From: a virus
Taxonomy: Duplodnaviria; Caudoviricetes
Direction: 5' to 3' (one strand)
IMG/VR virus record: IMGVR_UViG_3300044724_001206
Span: 1 to 32,270 of that record
DNA length: 32,270 nt
Positions 319-30,774 of this stretch are shown piece after piece. Every line of letters starts with the position of its first letter. Position 1 is the first letter of the stretch. A program made the translations under genes and the position numbers. The notes beneath the pieces were generated by a model that saw only the letters and a list, made by a program, of their open reading frames with translations, was not told where the DNA came from and made no database searches.

Positions 319-421
319 AGGGGGGCAGGGCCGAAAGGTCTTGCGTCTCCTGTATAGTGGGAGAGGATTCAGTGCAACACACACACTAACACTTCACACA
401 AAAGCACACCTCTCCCCTTTT
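319..421 (+). ncRNA. Candidate ~100 nt structured small RNA (GAAA-tetraloop hairpin, CA-rich-loop hairpin, U tract)
   Basis: Stem 319-332/337-351 closed by C(GAAA)G with several G-U pairs. Stems GGGAGAGG 359-366/CCTCTCCC 409-416 and GTGC/GCAC enclose a 28 nt G-free loop (376-403). TTTT follows; promoter directly upstream. Confidence 0.55.
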
Positions 422-427
422 ATCTCG

Positions 428-519
428 AAAAGCTAAAAAGCTAAAAAGCTAGAAAGCTAGCCGGTCGGCGGCCGGGCTGTCTTGAAAAGCTGAAAAGCTG
501 AAAAGCTAAAAAAAAAAAA
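428..519. repeat. Two arrays of 8-bp-period AAAGCT repeats flanking a GC-rich imperfect palindrome, then A12
   Basis: 4 units at 428-458, CCGGTCGGCGGCCGG at 461-475, GAAAAGCT x3 at 484-507, poly-A at 508-519. Confidence 0.85.
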
Positions 520-621
520 GTTTGAAATTTTGAAAAAATTTTTCGAGGTGCATATGTATATGTGTATGTGTGTGTAATTTTTCCTGCCCCCCTCAACCGA
601 TCGACCCACCCCCCACCAAAT

Positions 622-901
622 AGGGTGCGACAACTTGTCCCAACCTCGTGCCTTATTTCTGACACAATTATATGCTAAGGGATTTTGTTCTCGTTTTGTT
701 CCTCTCTTTATAATAGCAACCCGACCTCGATAACCCTGTGGATAAGACACAATCCTGCCACAATTAATCTTATTATAACCTTTTTGCTGACACAATGTGG
801 CCACATTTAGGTATTAGCTTTTAGTTATAGCAAGGGAGCTAGATACCTAGTCAATCCCTGTTTAGATTGCTACCCCTCGATAGGTTTTGAGGGTGCGACA
901 A
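622..901. repeat. Dispersed repeats upstream of the early genes (putative protein-binding sites)
   Basis: AGGGTGCGACAA at 622-633 and 890-901; GACACAAT at 661, 746, 789; GCCACAAT at 757; perfect palindrome AATGTGGCCACATT at 794-807. Confidence 0.65.
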
Positions 902-910
902 TCTGACTAT

Positions 911-938
911 TTGACTTGGTATCCTGTTCTGATATGCT
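911..938 (+). promoter_or_regulatory. Early promoter (extended -10)
   Basis: TTGACT -N16- TATGCT with TG at 930-931, upstream of SD GAGGT and ATG 959. Confidence 0.6.
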
Positions 939-958
939 TAGAAAAAGCGAGGTAAAAA

Positions 959-1234
959 ATGGCTGTAAACTATGGAAATAGTCACCGAGTTTATACAGAA
1001 AAGCAAACGCCAATAGGTCGTAGCCCTGTCTATAATTCGGTAAAAAATGAGTATGAAGTTGTGAGTGATCGCAATAAATTGATCGCTAGGTATCCCACTC
1101 ATAAAAGGGATTGTAGTGAGTTACGAATTGATGGCTTTCACAGATCAAAAGTCAATGAAGTAATTGAGAAAGCTAAAGCCAAAAAAGGTAGAAAACCCGC
1201 ATGGCTCAAAGAATTTAACAAAACTATTAGATAA
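959..1234 (+). CDS. Early hypothetical protein, basic
   Basis: 91 aa ORF with SD GCGAGGT. Confidence 0.75.
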   Translation: MAVNYGNSHRVYTEKQTPIGRSPVYNSVKNEYEVVSDRNKLIARYPTHKRDCSELRIDGFHRSKVNEVIEKAKAKKGRKPAWLKEFNKTIR

Positions 1235-1253
1235 GGCAATATTGCCTTATTTT
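1231..1253 (+). terminator. Perfect 20 bp palindrome ending in a T run (terminator or operator)
   Basis: ATAAGGCAAT|ATTGCCTTAT at 1231-1250 then TTT, at the stop of ORF 959-1234. Confidence 0.55.
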
Positions 1254-1300
1254 AAACATAATTATAAATTATAAACTATTTTAACAAAGCGAGGTATTTT

Positions 1301-1510
1301 ATGACTAAAAAAACTTTTGAAAATATTGCTCGTATCATTGGCCGATTATGTGCCAACGATTGCGAGGGATTGACTAAAAATAATCTTGTCAATGAATTTG
1401 TCAGTTTATTTTCTGATGAAAATCCAAGATTTAATTCTGAAAAGTTTCTTCGTTATATTGAGAGTAGTGAGGAATTTAATAACATCATAGCAAAAGCGAG
1501 GAGCAAATAA
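1301..1510 (+). CDS. Small conserved phage early protein (NPRF..F motif)
   Basis: MTKK.F..IA.II...F..ENPRFN.EKF pattern seen in many phage hypotheticals; SD GCGAGGT. Confidence 0.8.
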   Translation: MTKKTFENIARIIGRLCANDCEGLTKNNLVNEFVSLFSDENPRFNSEKFLRYIESSEEFNNIIAKARSK

Positions 1511-1511
1511 T

Positions 1512-1819: not shown

Positions 1820-1911
1820 TACTTGACAATGCCTCTCAATAATATATGAGAGGTATTCTCAAATATTAGAATTAGCTAGTATTTGAACACGACAAATTAA
1901 AGAGGTGTTTT

Positions 1912-3108
1912 ATGACATTACTTGAATTACTTAGATCAAATTACGCATGGACTAATGACGAAATTTTAGACGTTATTCAAAATAAAAATATGCCAATGCG
2001 TGATTATGATAATTGTATTGACTTTGTTAAACAAATCCAAATGGGTGCATTTAGAATCCATAGACGTACAAGTCATACAGTTATGGCAACTGATCTCAAG
2101 CACAACAATAATCTATGGCATTGTGATGATTGCGAAATTATTGAACATTTTGATGACTTGAGTTCTGTAAATCATGGAGATTATTCTGTTTGTAATAGTT
2201 GCCTAGATGATAATTATTATTATTCGGAAAGCCATGATACTTACAGACATAATGATGATTATGATGAGTACGAGGAAAATTACCAACAAGACAATGGCAC
2301 ATACAATTATGATACCAACGTCTTGGATTATGTATCGCACCAAGAACTCAAACATGAGCGTAACCACAAAAACTTGCAATACTATGGTATTGAACTTGAA
2401 GTTGAGCGTAGAAAAGATTGTCCATATGATATTGCAGACAGCATTAATTGTATGTTTGATGATTTTGCTATCTGTAAAAATGATGGCTCACTCGACAATG
2501 GCTTTGAGATTGTGACAGCACCAGCCACTTATGGCTTTCACAAAGATCGTTGGGAAGATTTTTTCAACAGTAAATTGTGCCAAGAAAATCTCAAGGGTTG
2601 GAATACTGATACAGCAGGACTTCACATTCACATTGGTAGAAAAACATTGCGACCAACAGACATTGGTAAAATTCTAGTGTTTGTTAATGATGACATCAAT
2701 GAAAATTTTATCAATGGTATCGCAGGTCGATCATCCCAACAATGGGCAAAGCGATCACCGAAAAAAGTATCTGATGTGTTGCGACCTTCTGGCGAAAAGT
2801 ATGAGGCGGTCAATACTAACCATTATCATACTATCGAACTTCGTATATTCAGAAGTAATATCACAAGACATGGCTTTTATCGTGTTCTTGAATTTACCGA
2901 TGCTCTTGTAAACTTTGTTAAGCTAGGAACTACTCTAGCAAATACAACACTTCATTACAAAGCATTTTGCCATTTTGTGTCCAAACCAGAATGGAGATCA
3001 CAATATCCCAACTTACTCGCGTGGCTTATTCGCAAGGGTTATGTGAAGGATATGCAACCAAGTCGTAACGTTGTTGTTACTGACTTACTTGAAACAGCTA
3101 CTAACTGA
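1912..3108 (+). CDS. Amidoligase (COOH-NH2 ligase type 2, Amidoligase_2) with N-terminal CxxC...CxxC Zn ribbon
   Basis: Motifs GIELEVE, KNDGSL..GFEIVTAP, AGLHIHIG, KYEAVN, TIELRIFRS; CDDC and CNSC pairs; adjacent to a GATase. Confidence 0.88.
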   Translation: MTLLELLRSNYAWTNDEILDVIQNKNMPMRDYDNCIDFVKQIQMGAFRIHRRTSHTVMATDLKHNNNLWHCDDCEIIEHFDDLSSVNHGDYSVCNSCLDDNYYYSESHDTYRHNDDYDEYEENYQQDNGTYNYDTNVLDYVSHQELKHERNHKNLQYYGIELEVERRKDCPYDIADSINCMFDDFAICKNDGSLDNGFEIVTAPATYGFHKDRWEDFFNSKLCQENLKGWNTDTAGLHIHIGRKTLRPTDIGKILVFVNDDINENFINGIAGRSSQQWAKRSPKKVSDVLRPSGEKYEAVNTNHYHTIELRIFRSNITRHGFYRVLEFTDALVNFVKLGTTLANTTLHYKAFCHFVSKPEWRSQYPNLLAWLIRKGYVKDMQPSRNVVVTDLLETATN

Positions 3109-3120
3109 AAGGGGTAGATT

Positions 3121-4047
3121 ATGTGCTTAATTATAGCAACCGAAAATCCAAAACAACTATCATCAGCTTTATTGGAAACAGCTTATGAAAATAATTCTGA
3201 TGGTTTTGGTGTGATGTTTATCAATAAGGGTAAACTTCATACACACAAAATTGTACCAAAAACATTTGCAGACATTGAAAAGATGTGGTCTAAATATCAA
3301 GACCTTGAAACCCCAATGGGTATTCACTTTCGATTTGCAACCAATGGCGATACAAACAAATCAATGTCACATCCATTCCAAGTGCTATCCAAAGCTAAAG
3401 GGGATGACAGAGATATGTGGGTAATGCACAATGGCCCTCAGTTGCCAACACCTATGATTGATGATAACAAATCTGACACACATCAGTTTGTCAAGTGGGT
3501 GTTGCGACCACAACTATCAGCCAATCCAAAACTATTGCACAATGCCGAGTGGCAATCCATGATCGAAGAACTGATTGGCACAGACAAACTTTTATTTCTT
3601 GATGGCAAGACTAAGGAGTTTGTTATCTTCAACGAAGATCAAGGTAAACACATGGATAATATTGGGTGGCTATCCAATACATATTCCATACAACCTTCGT
3701 ACAGTTCCACGACACGCACCAAATATTGGAATGACAAAACTAATGAGATCGAGGATCGATCTAACAAGTGGACTTATGATGATGAGTATTGGTCTTATGG
3801 TCACTACTCTGGTAGGAATTATTACAACACTACTAAGACACCTATAAGTGTGCAAGAGCCAAAAACTAATACGCAACTTGCACTACCTTTATCGGAAGAT
3901 GAAACCGATGAAACCATGTGGAATGGCAAAACTCTCTTGTGGGAAGATGTTGTTACCTTAGATAAAGATGAAATCATATCGTTATGTGAAGAAAATCCTG
4001 TTGGTATGGGTGTTCTGATCAGCGAAGAATTTGTGGGGAATAGATAA
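3121..4047 (+). CDS. Class II (Ntn) glutamine amidotransferase
   Basis: N-terminal catalytic Cys (MC), N.DGFG, HFRFATNG, HPF, HNG and SDT motifs. Confidence 0.9.
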   Translation: MCLIIATENPKQLSSALLETAYENNSDGFGVMFINKGKLHTHKIVPKTFADIEKMWSKYQDLETPMGIHFRFATNGDTNKSMSHPFQVLSKAKGDDRDMWVMHNGPQLPTPMIDDNKSDTHQFVKWVLRPQLSANPKLLHNAEWQSMIEELIGTDKLLFLDGKTKEFVIFNEDQGKHMDNIGWLSNTYSIQPSYSSTTRTKYWNDKTNEIEDRSNKWTYDDEYWSYGHYSGRNYYNTTKTPISVQEPKTNTQLALPLSEDETDETMWNGKTLLWEDVVTLDKDEIISLCEENPVGMGVLISEEFVGNR

Positions 4048-4921: not shown

Positions 4922-4922
4922 A

Positions 4923-5626: not shown

Positions 5627-5894
5627 TATAAATAAAAAAGACTTAAACATTTTAGAGATAGAATGGATTGACGCAGTGTCGGATGATAACTCGTGGCAAG
5701 ACGTAACTGAATTGCAAAAACAAAAGCTAAGACCTGTCACAAGTGTCGGATATTTATTGAAAGAAGATAGCAAATCTACCATTATTGTGTCATCTTTTGA
5801 TGAAGAAAGTCAATGTGGTGGTGGAGGTGTGGTTATTCCTACCAACTGTATAATAAAAAAGACAATACTAAAAGGACAAATTGATGTTGAATGA
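5613..5894 (+). CDS. Conserved small beta-rich phage protein of unknown function
   Basis: IEW.DA...W...SVGYLL.E......SS.D.....IP..CI.K pattern common in phage hypotheticals. Confidence 0.8.
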   Translation: MTNVNINKKDLNILEIEWIDAVSDDNSWQDVTELQKQKLRPVTSVGYLLKEDSKSTIIVSSFDEESQCGGGGVVIPTNCIIKKTILKGQIDVE

Positions 5895-6300
5895 TTATGA
5901 TTGGAGAACTAATCTATTTGTCTATGGTACATTAAAGAAAGGGGGCAGACTTCACAGTGTGCTTGGCAACTCGGCAGAGTTTGTAGGACAATATGTCACA
6001 GCAGATTCTAAGTATGATTTGTTTAGTTACGCCAAGAGTTTTCCTATCATGGTGGCCAGAGAGAATGGATATAAAATAAGAGGAGAAGTGTGGTCGGTCA
6101 CACCAGAAAGTATGGACAGGGTAAATGCAATCGAGAGTGGCTCGCATTACTATCCATTCCAGATAGATGTGATGAATGAACACACAAAAGAATATGAAAT
6201 CGGTTCGGCTATGACATTTTTATTCCCGGGCAACAAGCACAAACTTATGCCTGTGTCGGATATAAATGAAGTCGAAGGAGTAAAGGAGTGGGTATGTTGA
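5884..6300 (+). CDS. Gamma-glutamylcyclotransferase (AIG2/GGCT-like)
   Basis: LFVYGTLKKG signature, I.GEVW.V, AIE...Y; ATG at 5884. Confidence 0.9.
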   Translation: MLNDYDWRTNLFVYGTLKKGGRLHSVLGNSAEFVGQYVTADSKYDLFSYAKSFPIMVARENGYKIRGEVWSVTPESMDRVNAIESGSHYYPFQIDVMNEHTKEYEIGSAMTFLFPGNKHKLMPVSDINEVEGVKEWVC

Positions 6301-8176: not shown

Positions 8177-8393
8177 GTTAGAAATACCAACAGAACTTTT
8201 AGAAAAAGATCCGTTAGAGTTGGCCGAGAATCAACAAGACATAGATACAATCATTGCGTATTTAAAAGCAACTCGTGAGAATATTAGAGCCGCGGAAAAA
8301 TCTGGTAAAAGAATTACAGGTAAGACAGCGAGAACAAAAACAAAACCCGTTACTGAGGGGAGCATACTCGATGTGTTAGTTAAAGATGTCTAA
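8160..8393 (+). CDS. Hypothetical protein
   Basis: 77 aa; SD GGAG. Confidence 0.75.
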   Translation: MTKTNELEIPTELLEKDPLELAENQQDIDTIIAYLKATRENIRAAEKSGKRITGKTARTKTKPVTEGSILDVLVKDV

Positions 8394-9339
8394 GCCAGAT
8401 AAAGTACCTAAGTATATTTATGTAAACGATAAACCAAAACAAGTGGTGTGGGATACGTCAAGCCTTTCAACTTTCTTGGCGTGTCCTCGTTTATATAATC
8501 TAACAAACCTACGCGGGTATAAGTTAAAGAGTTATGGTACGGTCACGGGCTTTGGTTCCGCAGTGCATGACGCATACGAGATACTGGATAGGGGCAGGTT
8601 TCATGGTAAAGATAAACAAGAGACAATGCGTGAAGCTATTACATATACTTTAAAAACATACGGCCCAGATCTTGCACAAGCAGAAGATAAAGCGAGAGGA
8701 TTAGAAGCTACCCTTCGTGCAATCGTGTGGCGCGTAGAAGAATACTGGGATGATAACATTAAGATTGCGGCCATGCCAGATGGCGAGCCGTGTCTTGAGA
8801 AAAGATTTGAAGTACCTTTTGGTGAGACAGGTAAAAGATTTTCTGGCAGGATAGATAAGATTGTAGAGTTTGAAGGTGGCTTGTATTTATGTGATACCAA
8901 AACAACAAAGGCATCTTTATCTGAAATGTATTTCAGAATGTACCAACCAAACAATCAAGTGTATGCGTACCTATGGGCGGCGCGTCACATATTAGATTTA
9001 CCAGTGCGTGGATTTATTATTGATGCAGTACAAACAGGTGTGCATTTTTGCAGATTCAATCGTGCAGTATTTAATGTATCTAACTTATCTATTGATGAGT
9101 GGTACCATGACACAGCATATAATTTAAATGTGTCCGACACATACCATGAACATGAATACTACCCAGCTAACTTTACATCGTGTGGAAATTATGGTGGATG
9201 TAAGTTTAGAGAGATGTGTTCTGAATCACCCGATCATCGCATGACTATACTGAATGAAGACTTTGAAGTCTCGTTACATAATGACCTCGTTCGTGAAGGC
9301 GAGATCATTGACGCAAAAGAATTGTTTGGTAAAAAATAA
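8386..9339 (+). CDS. PD-(D/E)XK exonuclease, Cas4/AddB-like, with probable Fe-S cysteines
   Basis: SSL..F..CPR, GSAVH, E.RF, GRIDKI, DTKT, Q...Y motifs; C-terminal C.....C.....C. Confidence 0.88.
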   Translation: MSKPDKVPKYIYVNDKPKQVVWDTSSLSTFLACPRLYNLTNLRGYKLKSYGTVTGFGSAVHDAYEILDRGRFHGKDKQETMREAITYTLKTYGPDLAQAEDKARGLEATLRAIVWRVEEYWDDNIKIAAMPDGEPCLEKRFEVPFGETGKRFSGRIDKIVEFEGGLYLCDTKTTKASLSEMYFRMYQPNNQVYAYLWAARHILDLPVRGFIIDAVQTGVHFCRFNRAVFNVSNLSIDEWYHDTAYNLNVSDTYHEHEYYPANFTSCGNYGGCKFREMCSESPDHRMTILNEDFEVSLHNDLVREGEIIDAKELFGKK

Positions 9340-9391: not shown

Positions 9392-10204
9392 ATGGCAAGT
9401 ATAAAGAATCATACATCAGTAGATGTAACCAAGCTACTACTCGTAGGAGATAGTGGCTCTGGGAAAACGGCTTCATTAGCCACCCTTGCAAATGCAGGAT
9501 ACAAGTTACGTATCTTAGATTACGACAACGGCTTAGACATTTTACCCGAGTTCCTAACGGACACAGGTGTCAACAACGTTTCTTATGTAACGTTGAAAGA
9601 TCCTATGGGTAAAGCGGAGGCATTTCGTAAGGGGGCAGCTTTGATTTCCAACTGGAAAGATGGCGACGAAGAGTTCGGCCCTGTATCTAAATGGACTAAC
9701 AAAGATGTGTTAGTTATTGATAGCTTAACGTTAATGGGTGAGGCGGCACTTCGTGCGGCTCTTGTTTTTAACAATAAGAAATCTACAGATCAAGCCTCGC
9801 AACCCGAATGGGGAACGGCGGCTCGTGATGTGCAACATATCATACAGTACATTACAGGATCGGAAACGCCTTGTAACGTTGTTGTTACAACGCACATGCA
9901 ATACATGGAAGGAGACTTGGGAGTGTCCAAAGCATACCCAACTAGCGTAGGTTCTAAACTATCTACAAAGCTAGGAAGATACTTCAACTGTGTATGCAGA
10001 ATTGATACACGTTCTTCTAGCAAAGGAACCGAGCGTACATTACGTACTGTATCTGATCATAGAATGGATCTCAAAGTTACTGCACCAAGTCTTATTGGTC
10101 AACAAACTGAGTTGGATCTAGCTAAACTGTTCAGTGCAATACAACAAAATGCACGCAAAAAATTGTCGGCTGACAATGTAGTAAACCTAAAAGGAGGTAA
10201 TTAA
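9392..10204 (+). CDS. P-loop ATPase, AAA_24/Sak4-like recombinase
   Basis: Walker A GDSGSGKT, Walker B VLVIDSLT, VVVTTH; sits between an exonuclease and an SSB-like gene. Confidence 0.82.
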   Translation: MASIKNHTSVDVTKLLLVGDSGSGKTASLATLANAGYKLRILDYDNGLDILPEFLTDTGVNNVSYVTLKDPMGKAEAFRKGAALISNWKDGDEEFGPVSKWTNKDVLVIDSLTLMGEAALRAALVFNNKKSTDQASQPEWGTAARDVQHIIQYITGSETPCNVVVTTHMQYMEGDLGVSKAYPTSVGSKLSTKLGRYFNCVCRIDTRSSSKGTERTLRTVSDHRMDLKVTAPSLIGQQTELDLAKLFSAIQQNARKKLSADNVVNLKGGN

Positions 10205-10644
10205 TGGCTGATATTCAAGACTTTTTATCGATGAACCCGGATGACGTACAGGAATCCATAGTGCTACCAGAAGGTAGCTATGACTTTGTGATCACCTCGT
10301 ATCGTTCGGATAAAGTTGGTGAAAACCAAAACGAAATCGTAAGACTCAACGTCAAGGCAAATGCTGTCTTGGAATCTGAGATTACGGACGGTGACTTAGA
10401 TCACTGTGAACCTACCAGACTAGAGTTCTGGGCGACATCCCGTGCAATGGGGCAAGGGAATCCTGTCATCTCAATCAAGAAGTTCTTAACCAACACCTTG
10501 AGTTTGAGTGGCGCTAGCTTTGGCGAAATGCTAGAGCAAAGCATCGGTCAAACTTTCTCTGGTGTGGTAAAGCACGAGATGGTAGGCAGGAATAAAGACA
10601 TCCTGCAAGCGTCTGTTAAACGAATAATTAACAAGGCGGCATAG
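10204..10644 (+). CDS. DUF669-like putative ssDNA-binding protein
   Basis: LPEG.Y...I N-terminal motif, beta-rich; typical position after Sak4. Confidence 0.65.
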   Translation: MADIQDFLSMNPDDVQESIVLPEGSYDFVITSYRSDKVGENQNEIVRLNVKANAVLESEITDGDLDHCEPTRLEFWATSRAMGQGNPVISIKKFLTNTLSLSGASFGEMLEQSIGQTFSGVVKHEMVGRNKDILQASVKRIINKAA

Positions 10645-10648: not shown

Positions 10649-11725
10649 ATGGGTGAGTATGCAGTAAATAAAAACGTAGCATCGCAACTTACTGAGGGGG
10701 CAAGGATTGCGATAGTCATGGACTACCCGACCGTGACTGAAGTACGATTGAACAAGATGCTTGCCGGGGATTATATTCTTGGCAAAGTTTGTAAACTAGC
10801 AGGGATAAAGCTAGAAGATTGCATGCTCACCCACGTCTTTCAAAGACGACCGGCACAGGAAAACTTACAAAACTTTTTTCACAAGAGGAGTGAATACAAG
10901 GCTTTGTGCAAAGGTACAGAGTGGCGAACACCCTATCCGTCCTCGACGCTAGGGTTTCTCAAACAGGAGGCGCAACCACATCTGGAGAGGCTGTACAAGG
11001 AGATCAATGATATTAAACCTAATGTTATATTAGCACTGGGGGCAGTATCATTGTGGGCATTCACAGGGTATGATAAGATTGGAACTTATAGAGGGGCGCT
11101 CATCTCCTCTAACACCTCGCACATCAATGATGATATAAAAATAGTTCCCTCTTATGCCCTGTCGAGTGTCGCTAGAAATTACGCATTGAGATCTATCATG
11201 TATTCAGATTTCAAAAAAGCATTACAAGAATCAGAAACAACAGACATAGTAAATATAGAAAGAGAACTCTGGATCGAACCGAGTATAAACGACTTAGATA
11301 AATTTAAAGAAGACTTCATAAAGAAGGATAACGCAAAACAACCTTTGTCATTTGACATTGAAACAGCAGGCGGGCGAATAACTTGTATTGGGTTTGCCCC
11401 CTCTCCGACTCATGCCATTGTAGTTCCATTCACATACGGATACTGGAAGAATGATGATGAAACTAAAGCGTGGGACTGGGTTCGAGATTTACTAGAAGAT
11501 AAACAGATTGTAAAGGTGGCACAAAATCAATCATATGATGTGTCATGGTTAAAGTATAAACAAAACATAGATGTAAAGGGTATTGTACATGATACGATGC
11601 ATGCTCAACATTCTTTACAACCAGAAATGGAAAAAGGTTTAGGCTTCTTAGGCTCCATATACACTAACGAGGGTGCATGGAAAACTCTAGCCAAGTTTTC
11701 TGATAGCACGAAAGCCGATGAATAG
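10649..11725 (+). CDS. DNA polymerase A N-terminal subunit: degenerate uracil-DNA glycosylase-like domain fused to 3'-5' exonuclease (ExoI and ExoII only)
   Basis: UDG family 4-like EI..IKPNVILALGAVS; exonuclease motifs LSFDIET (I), AQNQSYD (II), HDTM; no ExoIII motif before the stop. Confidence 0.85.
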   Translation: MGEYAVNKNVASQLTEGARIAIVMDYPTVTEVRLNKMLAGDYILGKVCKLAGIKLEDCMLTHVFQRRPAQENLQNFFHKRSEYKALCKGTEWRTPYPSSTLGFLKQEAQPHLERLYKEINDIKPNVILALGAVSLWAFTGYDKIGTYRGALISSNTSHINDDIKIVPSYALSSVARNYALRSIMYSDFKKALQESETTDIVNIERELWIEPSINDLDKFKEDFIKKDNAKQPLSFDIETAGGRITCIGFAPSPTHAIVVPFTYGYWKNDDETKAWDWVRDLLEDKQIVKVAQNQSYDVSWLKYKQNIDVKGIVHDTMHAQHSLQPEMEKGLGFLGSIYTNEGAWKTLAKFSDSTKADE

Positions 11726-12078: not shown

Positions 12079-12277
12079 AAAAGATAATCATGAAAACATC
12101 GCAGGTTTATGGTCAGCATATTTAGATACTAAAGTTTCAGCACACGATGTTTCCATCTTAATGTTACTGTTAAAGGTAGCAAGATTAAAGTCTGGTCAAC
12201 CTTCCAAAGATACATACGTAGACATGGTAGGGTATTCAGCAATAGCGGGGGAACTGAGTGATAAAAGTAAGCAATAA
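11999..12277 (+). CDS. DUF6378-like protein (all-alpha, possibly nucleotide pyrophosphatase-related)
   Basis: R..EYG....N..NIA.LWS.YL....HDV...M.LLKVAR......D..VD..GY signature. Confidence 0.8.
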   Translation: MVINIEENLRQALKILKGPREKEYGNKKDNHENIAGLWSAYLDTKVSAHDVSILMLLLKVARLKSGQPSKDTYVDMVGYSAIAGELSDKSKQ

Positions 12278-13787
12278 TAATTTAGATTTAAAACCATACA
12301 ACGACGAGCAGATCAACTGGATATACTGTGCATTAGATTGTACGTTGACACAAGAGATTTGGTCTAAGATATCAGAAGAACTTGATGAGACAACAAAAGG
12401 TACGTATGAGTTTGAACTAAAAAGTCTCAAGCCTGCAATGGCTATGACGTTACGAGGTTTGAAAGTAGATGAAGATAAAGTCAAGGCAATAAAAAAACCT
12501 CTTAAAGAAAAGAGATTACGTCTTGAAAGAATGTTGCATTTGTTTTCACAAGCGGTATCTGGTAAAGATTTAAATCACAACAGCCCAGTGCAGTTGAAGA
12601 AACTTTTATATGAAGATTTAAATTTACCACCAGTTGTTTCTTATGCTAAAGGTAAACAAAAGATATCAACCAACAGAGATGCTTTAGAATCTTTATCTGA
12701 TTCTTATCCAAGAGCCAGACCTTTTTGCAGAACAATACTTGCACTACGTGACATTGATAAAAACTTAGGAGTGCTTGCGTCAAAGCGTGACCCTGATGGT
12801 AGAATAAGATGTTCTTATAATGTAGCAGGTACAGAGACAGGCAGGTGGTCATCAAGAGAATCACCATGGCGTACTGGTACAAACTTACAGAACATAACAA
12901 AAGATTTACGTGAAGTCTTTATACCAGATACAGGTAAGCAAATGTTTTATGCAGACTTAGAACAAGCGGAGTCGCGTGCCGTTGCATACTTGGCTGCGGA
13001 TGAAAATTATATCAGCGTGTGTGAAAGTACTGACTTGCATACTGAAGTTGTTAAAATGGTATGGCCTAACATGGGTTGGACAAACGATCCAAAACAAGAT
13101 AGAGCTATAGCAGATCGTAATTATTATCTACATCACAGTTACCGTGACATATGTAAACGAGCAGGACATGGAACAAACTATGGTGTGTCACCACACTCAC
13201 TAGCAAGACAGATAAAGATCAAAGTGTCACAGGCTACACGATTTCAGTTGCTTTATTTTGGTGGTGTGATATCATCAGTTAGTTTAGAAAGATGGCACAA
13301 ACAAGATCCAATGGGGGGCTATCAAGAATTGTTAGATATAGGAGAAAAGATTGGTAAAGATACGCTTAAGATTAGGGGGGCATTCCCGGGCATACGTGTG
13401 TGGCATAACACAATACAAAAAGAACTAATTGAGAAGGGTAGCTTGACAACACCTATGGGTAGGCGTAGACATTTTTGGGATAGACTAAAAGATGCGTCGA
13501 CCTTGCGTGCGGCGATTGCATTTGTACCGCAGTCAACAATAGGTGACTTGCTAAACTTAGGTTTGTGTCGAGTGTATGATGAACTACAAGAAGCAGGTGT
13601 AGAAATATTAGGTCAAGTACACGATGCAATACTGGGGCAATGTGATAAGGACAAAGTAAATGATCTTATGCCACAGGTTCTCGAGAGAATGCACAATCCA
13701 TTGATGGTCAATGGACGCAAAATGTTAATACCTTCTTCCGTAGAGGTGGGAGATAATTGGAAGGATTTAAAAACATGGACGATATAA
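12258..13787 (+). CDS. polA: Family A DNA polymerase catalytic subunit (ExoIII helix, thumb, palm, fingers)
   Basis: YCALD (ExoIII), NSP.QL..LLY, TETGRWSS, NLQNI, motif A ADLEQAE, motif B RDICKRAGHGTNYG, motif C QVHDA. Confidence 0.95.
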   Translation: MIKVSNNNLDLKPYNDEQINWIYCALDCTLTQEIWSKISEELDETTKGTYEFELKSLKPAMAMTLRGLKVDEDKVKAIKKPLKEKRLRLERMLHLFSQAVSGKDLNHNSPVQLKKLLYEDLNLPPVVSYAKGKQKISTNRDALESLSDSYPRARPFCRTILALRDIDKNLGVLASKRDPDGRIRCSYNVAGTETGRWSSRESPWRTGTNLQNITKDLREVFIPDTGKQMFYADLEQAESRAVAYLAADENYISVCESTDLHTEVVKMVWPNMGWTNDPKQDRAIADRNYYLHHSYRDICKRAGHGTNYGVSPHSLARQIKIKVSQATRFQLLYFGGVISSVSLERWHKQDPMGGYQELLDIGEKIGKDTLKIRGAFPGIRVWHNTIQKELIEKGSLTTPMGRRRHFWDRLKDASTLRAAIAFVPQSTIGDLLNLGLCRVYDELQEAGVEILGQVHDAILGQCDKDKVNDLMPQVLERMHNPLMVNGRKMLIPSSVEVGDNWKDLKTWTI

Positions 13788-13987
13788 ATAAATTATATGT
13801 AGAGAATGGAAAGATAATAGTAGAGGAACCTAATAAAGGCACAACCAAATGCGATGGAGCAGAGATTGAAGGGCCCTCCGTTTTAAAGCAAGACGATGAT
13901 GGAAACATATGGATAGAAACAAAAGCTAAAGTGGTAAAAATTGTGAAGATTCTGCCAGAAAACATTTCAATACCGAATGAAAAATAA
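13775..13987 (+). CDS. Small beta-rich hypothetical protein
   Basis: ATG 13775 in frame with track ORF; EIEGPS.L...WIET pattern. Confidence 0.7.
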   Translation: MDDINKLYVENGKIIVEEPNKGTTKCDGAEIEGPSVLKQDDDGNIWIETKAKVVKIVKILPENISIPNEK

Positions 13988-15246
13988 TGGCAAGAAAATT
14001 CAAAGACTTTGTTCAAGCGTCTGTTGACGCCATAAAAGATAGTCCAATACCAAAACCATTCGCTAAGTGGACAGCACTGTCTGCTATAGCCGGTGCTATG
14101 GGCAGACGTGTATGGTTTCCAATGGCAAACTATAACATTGGTTCTAATCTTTTTGTTATATTGATTGCACCACCGGGCAGAAATAAATCAGTAAGTTTGA
14201 TATTACCTTTCTCAAAAGTATTCAGCAGACTTACTACTCCTGTTGGTTCCACACCAGAAGATCATAATTTTAATTCTGGATTAGCGGAATATAATTTAAA
14301 AGATTATCCTTTGTATAGTATTCAAGATAGAATCACACCAGAAAAACTGGCAGTTGATATGACTAAAGTTACACGTATGGATATGCGGTTGGGTGATATT
14401 GAAAATGAGTTTCAATTTTATGATTCATCATTGACTCTTGTGACGTCAGAGTTCGGTACATTCATGGGTCGTAATGAAAGGTACTTACAAATGTTTCTTA
14501 CAGATATGTGGGATGCTAAAGATTCATACAGTCACAAAACAAAAACAGCAGGGGAGTATCTTATTCAAGGCCCTTGTTTAAACTGGATAGCTTGTGCTAC
14601 ACCGACACAGTTTGTTGACAACTTACCAGAAGACGCAAAGTCTCAAGGTTTGTTATCAAGAATTATACCTGTGTTTTATGAAGGCGAAAGAATACCACAA
14701 GACTTGCGACAAAAAGTTATTAGTGAACACACAATAAATGATTTACGAAATGATTTAAGTCTTATCGCAAAGATGCATGGGCCGATGCAGTTTGATAAAG
14801 AAGCTTTTGAAATTGCAAACCAAGAGATCTATGACAACATACAACCGGAACCAACTGATCCACACCTGTCCGAGTATGGGCAACGACGTGTATCACACTT
14901 CTTAAAGGTTGCTATGTCGGTATCAGCGGCGCGTAGTTCTTCACGTTTCATCACGAAGGGTGATTGGGAAACAACAAAAGAGATTATGTTTGATATGGAA
15001 AAAGACATGCCAAGAGCATTGGAAGGTTTTGGTATGGCAAAGACAGGGCGTATTGCTCACGACATGAAGGTGTGGCTAGATGCCACACTTGCTGCGAGTG
15101 GCAAGAACCATATGCAGTTGCGATTCTTTAAGAGAGAACTGTTAAGAAAGATACAAAATCCCGGCGAACTGGATCAAACCATCAAGGCGATGCAGGATTC
15201 TGGGTACATAAAGCTAGAAGGTAATTTAATTTTTCCAAAAAAGTAA
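13987..15246 (+). CDS. DUF3987/YfjI-like P-loop ATPase with C-terminal winged helix; candidate replicative helicase
   Basis: Variant Walker A APPGRNKS, ITPEKL, Walker B-like VTSEFG, GLLSR; directly downstream of polA. Confidence 0.7.
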   Translation: MARKFKDFVQASVDAIKDSPIPKPFAKWTALSAIAGAMGRRVWFPMANYNIGSNLFVILIAPPGRNKSVSLILPFSKVFSRLTTPVGSTPEDHNFNSGLAEYNLKDYPLYSIQDRITPEKLAVDMTKVTRMDMRLGDIENEFQFYDSSLTLVTSEFGTFMGRNERYLQMFLTDMWDAKDSYSHKTKTAGEYLIQGPCLNWIACATPTQFVDNLPEDAKSQGLLSRIIPVFYEGERIPQDLRQKVISEHTINDLRNDLSLIAKMHGPMQFDKEAFEIANQEIYDNIQPEPTDPHLSEYGQRRVSHFLKVAMSVSAARSSSRFITKGDWETTKEIMFDMEKDMPRALEGFGMAKTGRIAHDMKVWLDATLAASGKNHMQLRFFKRELLRKIQNPGELDQTIKAMQDSGYIKLEGNLIFPKK

Positions 15247-15275: not shown

Positions 15276-15310
15276 ACAAAACTTTGTGTGTAAAATAATT
15301 GAGAGGAAAT

Positions 15311-17059: not shown

Positions 17060-17068
17060 GGAGGATTG

Positions 17069-18450: not shown

Positions 18451-18655
18451 GTACGATGGTTACGCTAAGAAATTGTTTTATGATTGGCGTAACAAAAGAA
18501 AAATAAGACTGCCCATTTGGGAGAAACTAAATTACAAAGACCGAGATGAGTGGCGCGGTGTGGCTCAACTCATGAAACGTGAAAGAAAAGAAATGAAAAA
18601 ACTTTTCAAAAATACAGGAGATAAACATGAAAGACAAACTACTCGAAGCCGTTAA
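18425..18655 (+). CDS. Small basic hypothetical protein (start uncertain)
   Basis: In frame with track ORF 18407-18655; WEKL..KDRDEWR pattern. Confidence 0.65.
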   Translation: MMYQEKETKYDGYAKKLFYDWRNKRKIRLPIWEKLNYKDRDEWRGVAQLMKRERKEMKKLFKNTGDKHERQTTRSR

Positions 18656-19859
18656 TGCAGTTGTCTTAGCTAAGGGTAATAAATCAGATGCGGCTCGTAA
18701 ATTAAATATACCAAGGCCAACATTGATGACCCGTTTAGCGGCGGCGGAGCGTGAGAACATAGCACCTTCTGTTAAATCGCCAGACTTAGAAGTAGCTTTA
18801 GCGGAACAAAAGATGACGTATGAATTGCAGGTACGGGATTTAAAGAAACAACTAGAAGAGTCTACGTTACATAACATTACTGCAAGTTATGTTCGTAAAC
18901 ATATATTTAAATTAGGTGAGCACGAACCTAACCCACCGGAGTGGTTAATAAAAGCAAAGCCATCTAAGAGTACGCCGGGCGTACCTACATTATTCTTATC
19001 AGACTTTCACTACGGAGAAGTTGTAAAGAAAGATGCGGTTAATAATTTAAATAGCTTCAATAAAAAAATATCACAGAAGAGATTAAAAGAAACAGTAGAA
19101 AATGCTATTGATCTATGTCATAATCATATGGTCAATCCAAACTATCCGGGCATTGTCTTAGCGTTAGGTGGTGACATGATGTCTGGAAACATTCATGATG
19201 AATTAACCGAGACAAATGATGGCACAACTATCGATCATGTACTGGAATTGTTTGATCAAATGATATGGACAATTACTACATTGGCTGATAAGTTTGGTAA
19301 AGTATTTGTTCCAACAAGTTATGGTAATCACTCTCGTGCTTATCAACAATACAGGAACAAAGAAGCGGCGCATTTAAGTTTTGATTGGATGCTGTATAAT
19401 TTATTAGAGAAACATTTTAAATCTATTAAAGATACAAGAATTAAATTTCAGATACCAACTGGATTCGATGCATACTATAAAGTATACGACACTACATACC
19501 TACTAACACATGGAGATAGACTCGGTGTACGAGGAGGTACTGGTATTGTCGGAATGCTTGGGCCTATTGCAAGAGGAGTTCAGAAGGTTAGATCAGAATA
19601 TACTAGCGTTGGTAAGTCCATTGACTATGTTATCATGGGGCACTTCCACCAGTATATTTCTATCAAAGGAGCCATTGTAAATGGTTCCCTCAAAGGCTAT
19701 GACGAGTACGCTATGAGTAATCGTTTCGCTTTTGAAACACCTAAACAGGCTTTATGGTTTACACACCCCCAACATGGTGTGACTTTCCAAGTTCCTATCA
19801 TTGCAGAAGATGCACCGATTAAGAAACGAAAGAAAGAATGGCTTCAATGGGCGTCATAA
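18627..19859 (+). CDS. Calcineurin-like metallophosphoesterase with N-terminal Fis-like HTH and coiled coil
   Basis: GNKSDAARKLNIPRPTL HTH; SDFHYG, GGDMMSG, GNH, THGD, GHFHQ metal-binding motifs. Confidence 0.88.
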   Translation: MKDKLLEAVNAVVLAKGNKSDAARKLNIPRPTLMTRLAAAERENIAPSVKSPDLEVALAEQKMTYELQVRDLKKQLEESTLHNITASYVRKHIFKLGEHEPNPPEWLIKAKPSKSTPGVPTLFLSDFHYGEVVKKDAVNNLNSFNKKISQKRLKETVENAIDLCHNHMVNPNYPGIVLALGGDMMSGNIHDELTETNDGTTIDHVLELFDQMIWTITTLADKFGKVFVPTSYGNHSRAYQQYRNKEAAHLSFDWMLYNLLEKHFKSIKDTRIKFQIPTGFDAYYKVYDTTYLLTHGDRLGVRGGTGIVGMLGPIARGVQKVRSEYTSVGKSIDYVIMGHFHQYISIKGAIVNGSLKGYDEYAMSNRFAFETPKQALWFTHPQHGVTFQVPIIAEDAPIKKRKKEWLQWAS

Positions 19860-19868: not shown

Positions 19869-19893
19869 AAAGGGGGTTGCAACTGCCCCCTTT
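19869..19893 (+). terminator. Intrinsic terminator-like hairpin (possibly bidirectional)
   Basis: AAAGGGGG-TTGCAACTG-CCCCCTTT, just after the stop at 19859. Confidence 0.65.
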
Positions 19894-27100: not shown

Positions 27101-30100
27101 GCGCATGGTTAGCATATTGATGTATCCGTTCTTCATCTGTACCGCGTTAAACAAAGGCGTAAAGACTGGATAGTCAGCGGCAATTCTTCTAAAGTGCCCG
27201 ATAAATCTAGAAAGCACGTTCATCTTTATTGGTGTAGTTTCTTTAGCTGTACCCTCTAATTCTTCTTTCATTTGCTTAGAATACTTTTCTATATTTCTAA
27301 TATATTTTCTTCTTTCTTGTCTCGTTAATGGTACATATTTATTTAATGGCGATGCGCCCGGATCATTGTACATTTTAACTTCTTTTCGTTTAGACTGAGC
27401 GGCCCTATTATTCGCGGCGTTTTGTACAGAGGCATCACGTTGTCCAATAATACCAGCATCAATCATTTCAAATATATCTGTTACTTCATTAAATCCAGAT
27501 GTACGAAGTGCGCCAGCTAAGCTAAAAATAAAGGCTTTAATTCTTTGGAATGCTCTACCTAATATAGAACCAAAAGTATTTCTGTTAACCATGTAATGCG
27601 CAAATGCTTCAGAGATAGCTTCTTCAATTTGTTCTTCTTGTGATAACTCTGGATATTTTTCTTTAATATTGAATTGATCTATCCAAGTTGTTCTTGCCGC
27701 TTCTTGTAATGATTTGTATTCTTCCGCTGTAAATAAACCTAAATCTTTTAAAGCATGTATTACTTCATGGTGCAAGGTATATAGTGTTGCATCTTGTTGA
27801 TTGTTATAGATGTCAGCGTCTGGTCTAGCATTAAGGGATATCTGTACTAATCGTTGACCAATTAAATATTTACCATTAACTTCAAAACCATCTGATGATA
27901 ATACTCTATCTAATACATCCAATTGAAACTTACTTAAACCTAATGCATCTAATCGACGTCTTAGTAATTGTGCTACTTTAATTGCATTGTCTTTAAACGT
28001 TTCACGTAGTCTAGGTTGTGCATTAGACATTACTGACCAACGCTCTGCTTTAGCTTTTATTTTTCTACGTTTAGTTATTGTTTCTGTTTGATCTAATCGC
28101 TTTCTTAAAGCGGCCAAACCTTTGACAGTACCATTAAATGTTTCCCAATTAGTAATAGGTTCTAAACTTAAAGACATAAGCAATTGATTAAGCCGTGCTC
28201 TGTTTCTCATTGCTCTTGTAATTAAACCACGATACGCCGCTAGTTGTTCTTCAACAAGTCTTCTTACATTAGGGTCAGGCGAGTTGAGTCTTTCGTCTCT
28301 TTGTAAATTATTAATAGCTTGTTCGGCGGTTCGGATAGCTTGCGGTGATCCAATCATTAATAAAGAAAACGGCGAACCTTTTGGTGCAAAAGGATTTTCT
28401 AATATGTGATACCCTTTATCTTTTAATTGTTTTAATTGTTGTTTAATTATTACTCTTGCTATCGGATCACTAGTAGATCTAAGTTCACTTTCTTTTCCTT
28501 TAACCGCTTCTAATAATGCTGGATAATATGGAGAGCCTGCAATTTTCCAACCTCTTGCATCAAGCGATTGAACTAATTCTCTGATTTCATTAAAACGTTG
28601 AGAGATATTCATGTTAAAAACATAAGTCGGTTTAGCATTTGGGTCAGCTAGTTTTTCTCCTGTAATACTAGAACGTTCTTCTGGTGTTAATGGTTCTATA
28701 ACTTCTACTTTTTCATCTACAATAGCTTCGTATTCCCTTGCAGATTTGGTAACAACATCTTCAAATCGTCTTTTATTATCAATGATATCTCTTAGACGTC
28801 TCATTCCTCGAGTTGTATTGGCAACGGGTGTAGTATCGTTAAGATGACGATTAATAGTTTCTTCTCCAAGTGGCCCGTTGAATCCTAATTCACTTAGTGT
28901 TTCTCTATCTTTCTTTGATATTTGATTTGAGTTTTTACCTTTGGCTTCTTCCTTTAATTGTTTTCGTCTTATTGCTGGATAAAATTTATTAACTGCTTCT
29001 CTTAATTTATCACCTTCTAATCCTTCAAATTGTTTATAAAATAAAGGCAATAAATAACCTTGATACTCCGTAGGTTTTAAAATTGCACGTTCTTCTTCAG
29101 GTTCTAACAACCACTCTTTTTCAGCTTCATCAGCTTTCTTTTGTCTATCTCTGCCTGTCTCTATTTCTTTCGCTATACGTTCTACTTCTTCTTCTCTATT
29201 TAAATAGTTATCCACTGCTTTATTGGTAGCTTCAGGAAGTACGTTTATTTGATTTAATTTCTTTTTACTTGCTTCGTATTCTTTTTTATTTTCTGGTGTA
29301 GCTTCTAGTTCTGGGTCAATTTCACCATCGTATTTATAATCAATCCCTGTTACTTCTGTTTTAACTTTTGGCGTCCTTTTAAAGATTGCGCCAATGTCTT
29401 CAATCGGAACAAACATTGCAGAAACGGTACCATCTTCTAACTGTTGATCTTGATAACCAATAACAAAATCGGTATCAGTATTACCTAACAATTTTAATTT
29501 AGGATCTTCTATCTTCTTGTCTGATTCTTTTCCTGTAAGTTGGCCCGCGTTATACACACCCGCTACACTTACATCGTCGTTAAATTCTAAATCAGAATCT
29601 TTTAGCAAATCTGGATTCTGATCAAAACTTCCAAACTTACCTTTAAACTCCGGGTCTGCCCCCTTAGCACCAAACTGTTTAAATGCCTTAACGGTAGGAC
29701 TAACTACACCAAAACCAAAACCACCAAAGAACCCAGCTGCCGCCGCTTCACCTATCTGTTTTACAAACTCTTTATTTTGATAAACTTCTTCAAAAGATTT
29801 ACCTGCTTGCAAAAATTCACCACCGGTAATATTAAGAGTTTCTTGTATTGATTCGGCAACTGCTTCACCGGCTCCTGTTTTTGCCATAGAAGTTGCTAAG
29901 TCTTTAGGATACTGCAAACCTTTCTTTAAAACTTTATTTTTAACTTCTTGCATTTCATTGGATTTCATTAAGTTATTTTTGAAAGTATTTTTACCAACAG
30001 TCTTACTCAAGAATGCATTTGATGCACCAAACAATCTTTCTGCGTAAGAATATGGCACAGCTAAAGCAAATGCTATTGCAGCATTAGGATCTTCTTCATC

Positions 30101-30742
30101 AGCCGCATCTATTTGAGCACCATAAAGGTCACCAAGAGCCATAGGATAAGCAGATAAAAAATAGCCAGTTTTACCTCCTATAGCAGCACCCACAGGCCCA
30201 CCTGCTAAAAATCCTGCGCCCGCCCCAGCTAATGTTGATAACGCTATAGGTATAACAGACATAGCTGTTTGTCCCATAGTTGAACCTAAGTATCGAGAAA
30301 AAGCTGTAAATTGTTTTTCATCATTTAAAACTTCTTCTACACTTCTTGGTCTAGGTATTATAGAACCATCTTCTTGTTGTCTAAAAATGTATGCCGATTG
30401 ATCTAATCTATATTGCTCATAAGCTTTTAGAGCTTCTTGCTGTTTTTCTTCTGCGCCAAAAACATCGTACATAGCGCCCATTACATTGGTGCCTATAGCT
30501 TTTAAATTAGTAAGGGTACTTTTAGCACTGGAAACAAAAGCATTATCATTAAGATTATCAGGTTGGAGCATGTCCACCGGTTGTAAGCCATACTTATATT
30601 CAAATCCGTTGACTTTCATAAAGTCTTCGAACTCACCTGATTTTAAAATGTTGACTATTTCTTCTGGATTAGCATCGGCATCGACCTTAAGCCTAGGCGC
30701 TTTAGGTGTATCAAACGTAATGTACTTTACTTTTTCTGCCAT
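24140..30742 (-). CDS. 2200 aa internal virion/ejection (polyvalent-type) protein with a zincin-like HEXXH domain
   Basis: Gly-zipper TM segments near the N-terminus, HHEVIH...EEAISE motif, C-terminal helical/membrane region; last of three ejection-type genes. Confidence 0.8.
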   Translation of the reverse strand: MAEKVKYITFDTPKAPRLKVDADANPEEIVNILKSGEFEDFMKVNGFEYKYGLQPVDMLQPDNLNDNAFVSSAKSTLTNLKAIGTNVMGAMYDVFGAEEKQQEALKAYEQYRLDQSAYIFRQQEDGSIIPRPRSVEEVLNDEKQFTAFSRYLGSTMGQTAMSVIPIALSTLAGAGAGFLAGGPVGAAIGGKTGYFLSAYPMALGDLYGAQIDAADEEDPNAAIAFALAVPYSYAERLFGASNAFLSKTVGKNTFKNNLMKSNEMQEVKNKVLKKGLQYPKDLATSMAKTGAGEAVAESIQETLNITGGEFLQAGKSFEEVYQNKEFVKQIGEAAAAGFFGGFGFGVVSPTVKAFKQFGAKGADPEFKGKFGSFDQNPDLLKDSDLEFNDDVSVAGVYNAGQLTGKESDKKIEDPKLKLLGNTDTDFVIGYQDQQLEDGTVSAMFVPIEDIGAIFKRTPKVKTEVTGIDYKYDGEIDPELEATPENKKEYEASKKKLNQINVLPEATNKAVDNYLNREEEVERIAKEIETGRDRQKKADEAEKEWLLEPEEERAILKPTEYQGYLLPLFYKQFEGLEGDKLREAVNKFYPAIRRKQLKEEAKGKNSNQISKKDRETLSELGFNGPLGEETINRHLNDTTPVANTTRGMRRLRDIIDNKRRFEDVVTKSAREYEAIVDEKVEVIEPLTPEERSSITGEKLADPNAKPTYVFNMNISQRFNEIRELVQSLDARGWKIAGSPYYPALLEAVKGKESELRSTSDPIARVIIKQQLKQLKDKGYHILENPFAPKGSPFSLLMIGSPQAIRTAEQAINNLQRDERLNSPDPNVRRLVEEQLAAYRGLITRAMRNRARLNQLLMSLSLEPITNWETFNGTVKGLAALRKRLDQTETITKRRKIKAKAERWSVMSNAQPRLRETFKDNAIKVAQLLRRRLDALGLSKFQLDVLDRVLSSDGFEVNGKYLIGQRLVQISLNARPDADIYNNQQDATLYTLHHEVIHALKDLGLFTAEEYKSLQEAARTTWIDQFNIKEKYPELSQEEQIEEAISEAFAHYMVNRNTFGSILGRAFQRIKAFIFSLAGALRTSGFNEVTDIFEMIDAGIIGQRDASVQNAANNRAAQSKRKEVKMYNDPGASPLNKYVPLTRQERRKYIRNIEKYSKQMKEELEGTAKETTPIKMNVLSRFIGHFRRIAADYPVFTPLFNAVQMKNGYINMLTMRFSSMLGDVYLRIKQDPAAAEALNKAHIIAQMTGGRYRRNAQDEIVLTAPSNSSDKNESVKAGETIVLTGDVALAYENYTMTMGMINEQILRDMIAGEYHVHIKDAITFINKFLPGTQGIPDLTGLKPEAATDILENMKLADGQFLLDQLQAIATRYQNRLYTIDTGITMTEEDLTNLINIQRRLSEGFMTQAQAYEDRIKDDYAPLMRYGTYFISVKDTDGKLIWYEQIESDVPGGFGIQRKARGIAEQLKLKYPDAQVSEPTLITIDQIRKIFSKEIDSIDTISGFLSGTNAKQYAQLRKEFYKKLKIDIQELKEKETGFVAPFKNFYMPRNKQVGAEGVPGYDPDFTRATLQFISGFANQSAQNRFNKNIVMNYKNVNDYSLEVGDSNLQKAVTRWMDYSDDPAQEWGRTRRMGFWWYLGGNLSSAFLQTISAVQFTGPILAELANPSFLPGVGFAKVTKALGDSFAVASKMVVRGAVKGSAFEDAMLNLDELPSDVKDAVLRAVADGTIKQGQAIQESGVTQMMGGSQAQQAFRIVENTIVGGAFNTFEAFSRISAFVATMRMATANPKMLEQAKKLYADNADFQFQIEKNDGVLTPEILARFITNETFGVYGKINRQNIGRGIGAVFGLFMTYVSQMTGMMFKMLNPPTIRKTVEGYRVQSLYPNRTRIQNRVARKTLARMALMILLTGGLFALPGGEDAEDMYNEFRKLATGLDSDIRDEFRKMLYEIGFSPKMIEFATAGGFNAFANIDIQRRIGFGNLPWSTQVRAGLSTLGLTTGARAEEFLGAAGSVYMSAARSVINDGIREGNYGAMIMNLFPNAVKNVGKGINYAYNGEAYTGYGVVLNEDLGLTEAFIQSMGYTPNKIAKAREALYLEKKVGGATSGYRQRMNARITNAYRDIILAQKEGDTSRILDAQAKIQEITKDIMKFNSKVPPHMVFTPDLERLFDQALQAVYPNYRLEKGGIKNYNEKRNIRIRLGLD

Positions 30743-30760
30743 GCCTTACAAAATGTATTC

Positions 30761-30774
30761 AGGGGTTGCCCCCT
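30761..30774 (-). promoter_or_regulatory. Small GNRA-loop hairpin in the intergenic gap
   Basis: Minus strand AGGGG-GCAA-CCCCT, upstream of ATG 30742. Confidence 0.4.

Follow-up and report, generated by a model that had tools for sequence, protein, structure and literature searches.

A selected GGGGGCA word on both strands of a marine phage clade without a recognisable primase: a candidate priming site

Why would a tailed phage write the same seven bases over and over into both strands of its genome, and what would read them? The question is raised by a 32,270-nucleotide virus record (IMG/VR IMGVR_UViG_3300044724_001206; Duplodnaviria, Caudoviricetes), hereafter the window, in which the word GGGGGCA occurs 26 times, 16 on the plus and 10 on the minus strand, with 15 of the 26 reading GGGGGCAG. 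It is the top 7-mer of the window, at 26 copies versus 1.2 expected under an order-2 Markov model (z 22.6), in line with the single copy that an earlier sequence-only reading had estimated from base composition. All 25 positions listed by that reading are correct and one site was overlooked, 29657 on the minus strand; its tallies of 14 GGGGGCAG and about six four-G GGGGCA sites become 15 and seven. Its remark that most long G-runs lead into CA also holds (26 of 34 runs of at least five Gs). The sites are as follows.

GGGGGCA, plus strand: 321, 4624, 4789, 5036, 5941, 9631, 10696, 11038, 13376, 16730, 17486, 18077, 21751, 22417, 23535, 26954
GGGGGCA, minus strand: 585, 7512, 11395, 16285, 19884, 22812, 24193, 25664, 29657, 30767
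Four-G GGGGCA, five extra sites, plus strand: 8591, 10449, 13634, 17614, 19637
Four-G GGGGCA, two extra sites, minus strand: 17172, 26087

Gaps between neighbouring sites average 1.8 kb on the plus strand (maximum 4.3 kb) and 3.4 kb on the minus strand (maximum 6.9 kb). Within genes, GGGGGCA is found 19 times, whereas 2000 genome-wide synonymous-codon permutations over 41 hand-chosen window genes give 1.13 on average and never more than 5; the codon-preserving shuffle named in advance as a possible refutation thus leaves the excess in place. Fourteen of the genic sites are sense (5, 2 and 7 in the three frames) and five are antisense, and a further seven sites are intergenic.

CheckV rates the window as a fragment (53%); complete relatives of this phage, G001 and G002, measure 59-61 kb. 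Members of this marine clade have about 37% GC and carry ribonucleotide reductase (RNR) and an insertion in their family A polymerase (PolA); the clade occurs widely, as 20 of 24 listed runs from 18 studies, labeled mostly estuary, marine or seawater, contain the stretch or part of it. A GGGGCA-type word is present in all 80 loci fetched with the helicase gene (63-99% identity, many redundant), at 473 copies versus 33.6 expected, and GGGGGCA or GGGGCAC leads the 7-mers, judged by codon permutation, in each of the 10 longer relatives. Pooled over eight clade genomes the word GGGGGCA stands at 136 versus 9.9 expected, and over 11 clade genomes GGGGCA stands at 321 versus 69.5, or one per 2.7 kb per strand versus 12.7 kb by chance. 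The core is GGGGCA, with G or A as its 5' neighbour; the 3' neighbour is G in the window subclade and C in most others (after GGGGGCA, pooled over the eight genomes: C 67, A 26, G 22, T 21). Fourfold positions within the word, compared over 92 codon columns in pairs that are not independent, are conserved at 0.77 versus 0.49 for matched codons when proteins are 85-97% identical (1381 of 1787 comparisons) and at 0.52 versus 0.28 when they are 72-85% identical (1043 of 1992). The synonymous-site conservation that had been put forward as a check is therefore present in relatives and, together with the codon permutations, upholds the earlier claim that a word found in all three frames and antisense is a DNA-level signal. 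Individual positions change from one subclade to the next: in the helicase gene the window has no site and relatives have sites at six other columns, and the PolA gene has sites at 13 columns across the clade. What selection keeps is thus the presence of sites and not their exact places. GGGGGCA, with its core GGGGCA, is a selected DNA-level word on both strands of a marine phage clade.

An excess of this kind could also come from codon-pair preference, from mutational slippage in G-runs or from a signal at the RNA level. The permutation null did not preserve codon-pair frequencies, the window's antisense sites all read GCC-CCC, and a few sites lie directly upstream of start codons. Three sense frames together with antisense and intergenic sites, conserved silent positions, and the lack of enrichment among one-mismatch neighbours (0 of 13 tested of 21 possible, lowest p 0.15) all speak against such an origin, as does an antisense observed/expected ratio (O/E) that at least equals the sense ratio (5.5 and 4.5 for GGGGCA in eight clade genomes). 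We consider these explanations largely refuted and very improbable.

The same ratios bear on strand. The modest strand bias of the sequence-only reading is real as a raw plus excess (16 versus 10) but dissolves as a signal, because it follows coding potential. The absence of bias once coding potential is allowed for argues against transcription, packaging polarity or a cue resembling FtsK-orienting polar sequences (KOPS). The KOPS consensus is GGGNAGGG, which has only 0-2 copies per genome, and both strands are equally enriched in our word; the KOPS-like suggestion is accordingly rejected. When strand labels are shuffled among the real positions inside each transcription arm, per-strand spacing falls on the more even side of the permutations in all 11 clade genomes and does so at p<0.05 in five of them, with a combined Stouffer z of 4.38 for the eight less redundant genomes (a value inflated by their kinship) and of -2.7 to 0.6 for seven control words. 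A strand-blind binding site would not yield per-strand evenness, so each strand appears to count separately. Elsewhere in the pooled clade, GCGGC is enriched 1.85-fold without per-strand evenness, and AGGGAC (25 versus 72.5) and GAGGGA (43 versus 87) are depleted.

This evenness argues against the word being bound or modified as duplex DNA by a phage protein that organises or protects the genome, for example the helix-turn-helix (HTH) phosphoesterase-like protein at 18627-19859. That protein is conserved at 57-99% in nine of 10 longer relatives (no match in fragment G007) and has no BLAST match in distant members; a PDB sequence search with it gave no match. Spacing of both strands combined is evener than random in five of 11 genomes, and several sites lie near promoters or in hairpins. 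Two of the window's sites lie within hairpins (19869-19892 and about 30760-30773), as the sequence-only reading had said, and the promoters that it placed before two others are TATAAT-like boxes judged by eye (sites 321 and 18077). A strand-blind site predicts no extra evenness over label permutation, contrary to the combined z, and Pfam finds no methyltransferase in the two complete relatives. A role of this kind is improbable on balance.

Which bases matter is equally informative. In a substitution scan, changes in the 3' GGCA abolish the excess (largest residual 10 versus 5.2) and the first G tolerates A (61 versus 16.1); the 5' Gs are tolerant and the 3' GGCA is strict. A short asymmetric word with a strict 3' triplet, a tolerant 5' part and kilobase spacing per strand is what a primase site looks like. 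The argument previously made from CTG, the E. coli-type DnaG trinucleotide, falls: the next base is G in the window and C in most relatives, only 22 of 136 pooled sites have the base that would give CTG, and CTG is therefore not the conserved part. Known primase sites offer a better comparison. SP6 primase is described as reading 5'-GCA-3' (PMC5737085), and in primase triplets generally the 3' base is uncopied and the middle base sets the first nucleotide, G/C-rich sites having been proposed to stabilise primers in A/T-rich genomes (PMC5737085, PMC2034472); the T7 site is given as 5'-(G/T)2GTC-3' (PMC12839067). Like these sites, GGGGGCA is short, asymmetric and dispersed over the genome, with a strict 3' end and a G-rich, tolerant 5' part, and it ends in the GCA of SP6. 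It is longer, however, is 14-fold enriched and is kept on both strands throughout, and priming is in its case our interpretation. T7 and SP6 phages also encode a Toprim primase-helicase, and none was found in the marine clade.

Of the functions first suggested for the word, priming thus leads. We favour, at a little better than even, the reading of GGGGGCA as a strand-specific, single-stranded template site for primer start. This raises the question of a reader, for which the gene map of the window is needed. Features are listed with coordinates and strand.

1..264, minus: terminase small subunit, N-terminal part, the gene being cut by the contig end (Pfam Terminase_2, E 2e-23)
265..958, no strand: gap between divergently transcribed genes, containing AAAAGCT repeats and an A-tract/T-tract element common to relatives; holds sites 321 plus and 585 minus
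8386..9339, plus: PD-(D/E)XK exonuclease, candidate reader if the word serves recombination
9392..10204, plus: Sak4-like annealing ATPase (PHROG 124, Pfam AAA_24)
10204..10644, plus: DUF669-like protein, putative single-stranded DNA-binding protein (SSB), candidate PolA priming partner
10649..11725, plus: UDG-like domain and 3'-5' exonuclease half of a split family A polymerase
12258..13787, plus: family A polymerase domain (PolA), candidate priming enzyme
13987..15246, plus: stand-alone DUF3987 superfamily 6 (SF6), MCM-related helicase (Pfam, E 6e-12)
18627..19859, plus: HTH and metallophosphoesterase-like protein, conserved in the marine clade (phosphoesterase motifs by eye)

The plus arm thus runs from exonuclease through Sak4, the DUF669-like protein, the UDG-like/exonuclease half, PolA and DUF3987 to RNR, and the minus arm encodes virion proteins. 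No primase gene was visible to the sequence-only reading, and the searches agree. Pfam scans covering 75 of G001's 78 called proteins, 82 of G002's 86, and 73 chosen proteins of G417, G419, vir526 and Kuura find no primase family, and a six-frame search for Prim-Pol and Toprim_2 is negative in all five records (controls positive in 3 and 14 of 14 genomes). The DUF3987 protein, labeled 'DNA primase' in PHROGs, aligns over 13 sequences with the motifs APPGRNKS, SEFG and GLLSR, which we take to be Walker A, Walker B and arginine-finger-like motifs. The alignment holds helicase-type motifs only, and by these motifs the protein is an SF6 helicase without a primase domain; a PDB sequence search gave one match only (E 0.95). 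Kazlauskas et al. assign DUF3987 to MCM-related SF6 helicases, and count the cultured phage 119X among the few phages in which no primase was found, suggesting a missed primase or non-canonical priming (PMC4889955). The window's helicase matches 23 phage records, 15 of which are Pseudomonas phages of the PaP2/119X/PaMx group (24-25% identity).

The polymerase is modeled with confidence (pLDDT 89), with a fold like Pol I large fragments, and its closest cultured counterpart is that of Caulobacter phage Kuura (36% identity). Motif B reads KRAGHGTNY, with a His that is shared across the family and stands where Pol I has Phe. A 39-residue insertion in the fingers region occurs in the marine clade and in some environmental relatives and is absent, or nearly so, in 23 distant genomes parsed. 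Scans with the PolA of locus L122 and with protein P0121 each returned one locus. As a separate observation, many PolA relatives are 780-1120 residues long with split matches, suggesting inteins or insertions (P0124, P0125, P0128, P0132, P0143). The 10204..10644 product is likely an SSB, judging from its position and family matches: DUF669 is annotated on 12% of members of its Atlas match, the positional counterpart in vir526 matches DUF669 (E 1e-5), and an open reading frame (ORF) of similar size comes next after Sak4 in most of the family members examined. We take such DUF669-like proteins to be SSBs. The 117-residue ORF at 11725 resembles only nameless phage proteins. A PolA fold and a helicase are present in one operon with a DUF669-like protein, and no DnaG or archaeo-eukaryotic primase (AEP) is recognised.

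We propose that the SF6 helicase would displace one strand and that a priming enzyme would read 5'-GGGGGCA-3', leaving the 3' A uncopied. Starting with G opposite C would then give a short, stable primer, G-C-C-C-C-C. Since an AT-rich genome offers a chance site so seldom, selection would write one about every 2.7 kb per strand, shifting sites as genes diverge. We infer the G-rich strand to be the template, as we infer priming itself. As to the enzyme, the phage PolA with its SSB is a tentative choice; a host DnaG recruited to a strong site is a less probable one, and a phage primase that escaped detection is doubtful.

A precedent for the polymerase exists. CCPol-MP, a PolA domain with an SSB, primes beside a 3'-5' helicase and most commonly starts with dGTP opposite C (PMC7581432). 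Like the window, the CCPol-MP/Cch2 systems (PMC7581432; bioRxiv 2022.12.02.518924) combine a PolA domain lacking its own exonuclease half, a small SSB-like protein and an AAA+ helicase, all within a single operon that has no DnaG or AEP. The comparison is one of descriptions: CCPol-MP belongs to integrative elements of Firmicutes and has a loose start preference near the origin, whereas the window is from a phage with a sharp genome-wide word, keeps an intact exonuclease on a separate gene and has its DUF669-like protein beside Sak4. The N4-like module (PMC4889955, PMC10201439) similarly links a UDG-like domain to PolA and has a DUF3987-type SF6 helicase; there an AEP primase domain sits at the C terminus of N4 Dns, and the window's helicase (419 residues) is without it.

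If the module primes at a word, do other members have one? Phages 119X and PaP2 (Fredfastierviridae) and Kuura share with the window the order exonuclease, Sak4, SSB-like protein, PolA and DUF3987 helicase, converging replication and virion arms, and the lack of a primase; the kinship to Fredfastierviridae rests on helicase similarity (24-25%) and synteny. Four distant members have sharp words of their own on both strands: GAGGGAC in Kuura (OQ067476; 31 versus 5.3), which like the window has a split PolA; GAGGGTC in G419 (29 versus 6.6); CGGGGCA in G417 (17 versus 3.2; GGGGCA 34 versus 19.2); and CTGACGGG in vir526, mostly extended to seven Gs (16 versus 2.4). Their -log10 p values are 7-14, versus 3.4-4.8 in shuffled controls of a 21-kb locus. 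At its widest, and held as tentatively as the choice of PolA, the proposal is that the family A polymerase of 119X-like phages may be a sequence-specific primase that works with SSB and SF6 helicase and without DnaG or AEP, with the start word GGGGGCA every 2-3 kb per strand and sister words in Kuura (GAGGGAC), G419 (GAGGGTC) and vir526 (CTGACGGGGGG).

Some of these genomes show further patterning. In vir526 (L088, BK063670) an 11-12 base word, CTGACGGGGGGG(T), occurs on both strands, with 20 TGACGGGG copies; read backwards it contains the window's GGGGGCAG, and its per-strand evenness has p 0.026. In Kuura (L082), GTCCCTC/GAGGGAC has 33 copies, with GTCCCTC changing from the top strand in the left half to the bottom strand in the right, and copies at the terminal repeat. 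CAAGGCC in G418 (L297-L298), clumped and present on both strands, reaches 96 genic copies versus 21 expected, and related words occur in G434 and G445. EBPR podovirus 3 (L086) has GCGGCCGC, which was dropped as a dispersed word because it is part of a longer repeated sequence, an element of about 20 bases standing singly or in inverted pairs (9397-9443, 13812, 29049-29100, 38968).

Several results weigh against priming as the answer. No single word is common to the whole family: GGGGCA pooled over 45 distant loci stands at 372 versus 398, its excess among 31 fuller distant genomes is confined to G417 and G416 (44 versus 29.9), and seven of nine annotated relatives lack a sharp dispersed word, including PaP2, which unlike the window has a fused PolA. 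Other distant members have unrelated top words, some of them Chi-like (GTGCTGG in G428, TGCTGGTG in G446). Besides the kinship that inflates its combined score, per-strand evenness fails to reach significance in the window by itself (p 0.21), in G417 (0.32, 0.69) or in G419 (0.53), and the Kuura word goes the opposite way, strand-clustered beyond permutation (p 1.0), which fits coding bias but not the evenness pattern. The PolA insertion is a weak candidate for the specificity element, since Kuura, G417 and G419 have words without it, and L316 has it yet carries GGGGCA at 3 versus 2.9 in 8 kb. A very divergent primase could escape Pfam. Finally, CCPol-MP itself is described as having no unique start consensus (PMC7581432). 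The distant genomes have 45-64% GC, with a chance site every 4.2 kb per strand, so that an excess may not be needed there; higher GC could explain the missing word, and this is an after-the-fact rescue.

Does the word belong to the phage or to its host? Among 37 viral loci sharing DUF6552, GGGGCA stands at 93 versus 16.2 in 11 clade loci and at 43 versus 36.9 in the 26 others (shared hosts unproven); in this set the excess follows the phage clade. RNR beta matches at 52-57% carry almost exclusively alphaproteobacterial titles (6 of 64 parts scanned), and a helicase search of a bacterial genome collection found no prophage.

The host would matter most if the word were a Chi-type site of its AddAB or RecBCD, accumulated on both strands against end degradation and for recombination. 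The strand specificity of Chi would fit per-strand evenness, and the graded specificity of GGGGGCA fits too, which tells against priming. Lambdoid phages over-represent Chi (median O/E 2.3; PMC3784561), GCTGG-rich words rank first in some distant family members, and Chi words are described as unknown for most Proteobacteria and as largely unknown outside enterobacteria (10.1101/2020.08.13.249359). In contig C1 of each of G041, G220 and G221 the nine listed GGGGGCAS matches are all plus, which may be GC skew, KOPS overlap or a host-type polar word. Set against this, the O/E here is 14 versus about 2 for lambdoid Chi, the 26 non-clade loci sharing the accessory gene have no excess, and 24 Pelagibacteraceae loci (largely one orthologous region) show GGGGCA at 41 versus 35.1. 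The phages carry GGGGGCAS at 243-498 per Mb with the reversed control at 0 in 10 of 11; in 401 alphaproteobacterial genomes the top densities are about 250-280 per Mb by eye, their reversed controls reaching a third to half of that, so that the combination of density and contrast is unmatched there, Gammaproteobacteria lying outside the screen. The set includes two unpublished genomes (G254 and G054), and no conclusion hangs on either one by itself. The word is also unlike the five GCTGGTGG-like words of 10.1101/2020.08.13.249359. In sum, GGGGGCA resembles phage Chi sites (PMC3784561) as a strand-specific short word over-represented in coding DNA, and differs in sequence, in its higher O/E and density, and in that no matching host signal has been found so far. 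A Chi-type site, whether host or phage reads it, is the main rival to priming; we judge a host Chi unlikely.

Alternatively, the phage PD-(D/E)XK exonuclease and Sak4 could read the word as a private Chi-like stop, or it could be a nicking site for recombination-dependent or strand-displacement synthesis. A phage reader explains strand specificity and the clade-specific drift (GGGGCA, CGGGGCA, GAGGGAC in Kuura, GAGGGTC in G419), and the two genes are conserved core genes adjoining the replication genes; the same genes, however, are present in members without a word. To our knowledge no phage exonuclease has a genome-wide Chi-like site, and we hold this reading to be rather improbable. Were a host or phage exonuclease the reader, the word would be a new Chi-type word.

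The earlier label 'origin AT tract' is not supported. The 265-958 gap separates the terminase small subunit from early genes. At 427-520, AAAAGCT repeats face each other over a GC-rich spacer and are followed by the A-tract and T-tract element, which is conserved in G001, G002, G004, G006 and G007; in Kuura an A-tract directly precedes the terminal repeat. The pair of a plus and then a minus site varies among relatives: the window and G002 have it, G001 and G004 have a single site, and G007 has none. The position beside the terminase gene and the Kuura A-tract make a terminus or packaging region at least as likely as an origin, so that of the strategic non-coding placements once claimed the one beside an origin is not established.

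Some neighbouring genes deserve mention. Amidoligase-like, glutamine amidotransferase-like and gamma-glutamyl cyclotransferase genes at 1912-4047 and 5881-6300 of the window are conserved in the clade. At 118-2031 G001 encodes a class II (B12) RNR, versus class Ia at 15299-18028 of the window; it further carries several 2-oxoglutarate-Fe(II) oxygenases, Hsp20, GroES and an arginyl-transferase-like gene. A crude pattern search for a DFDGD-type motif in the 2200-residue virion protein found none.

A literature search, with subscription journals mostly outside it, returned no paper on GGGGGCA in phage, on over-represented primase sites with PolA or on evenly spaced priming sites. What is new here is a selected, per-strand word in a lineage that has no recognisable primase and has a cultured relative; since Kuura has its own word, GAGGGAC, the proposal is testable. 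How 119X-like phages prime is a stated open question (PMC4889955), and a strand-resolved selected word is a substrate for a direct priming assay. With PolA as the reader, a phage replisome would run on a sequence-specific PolA primase, which could be useful for primer-free amplification.

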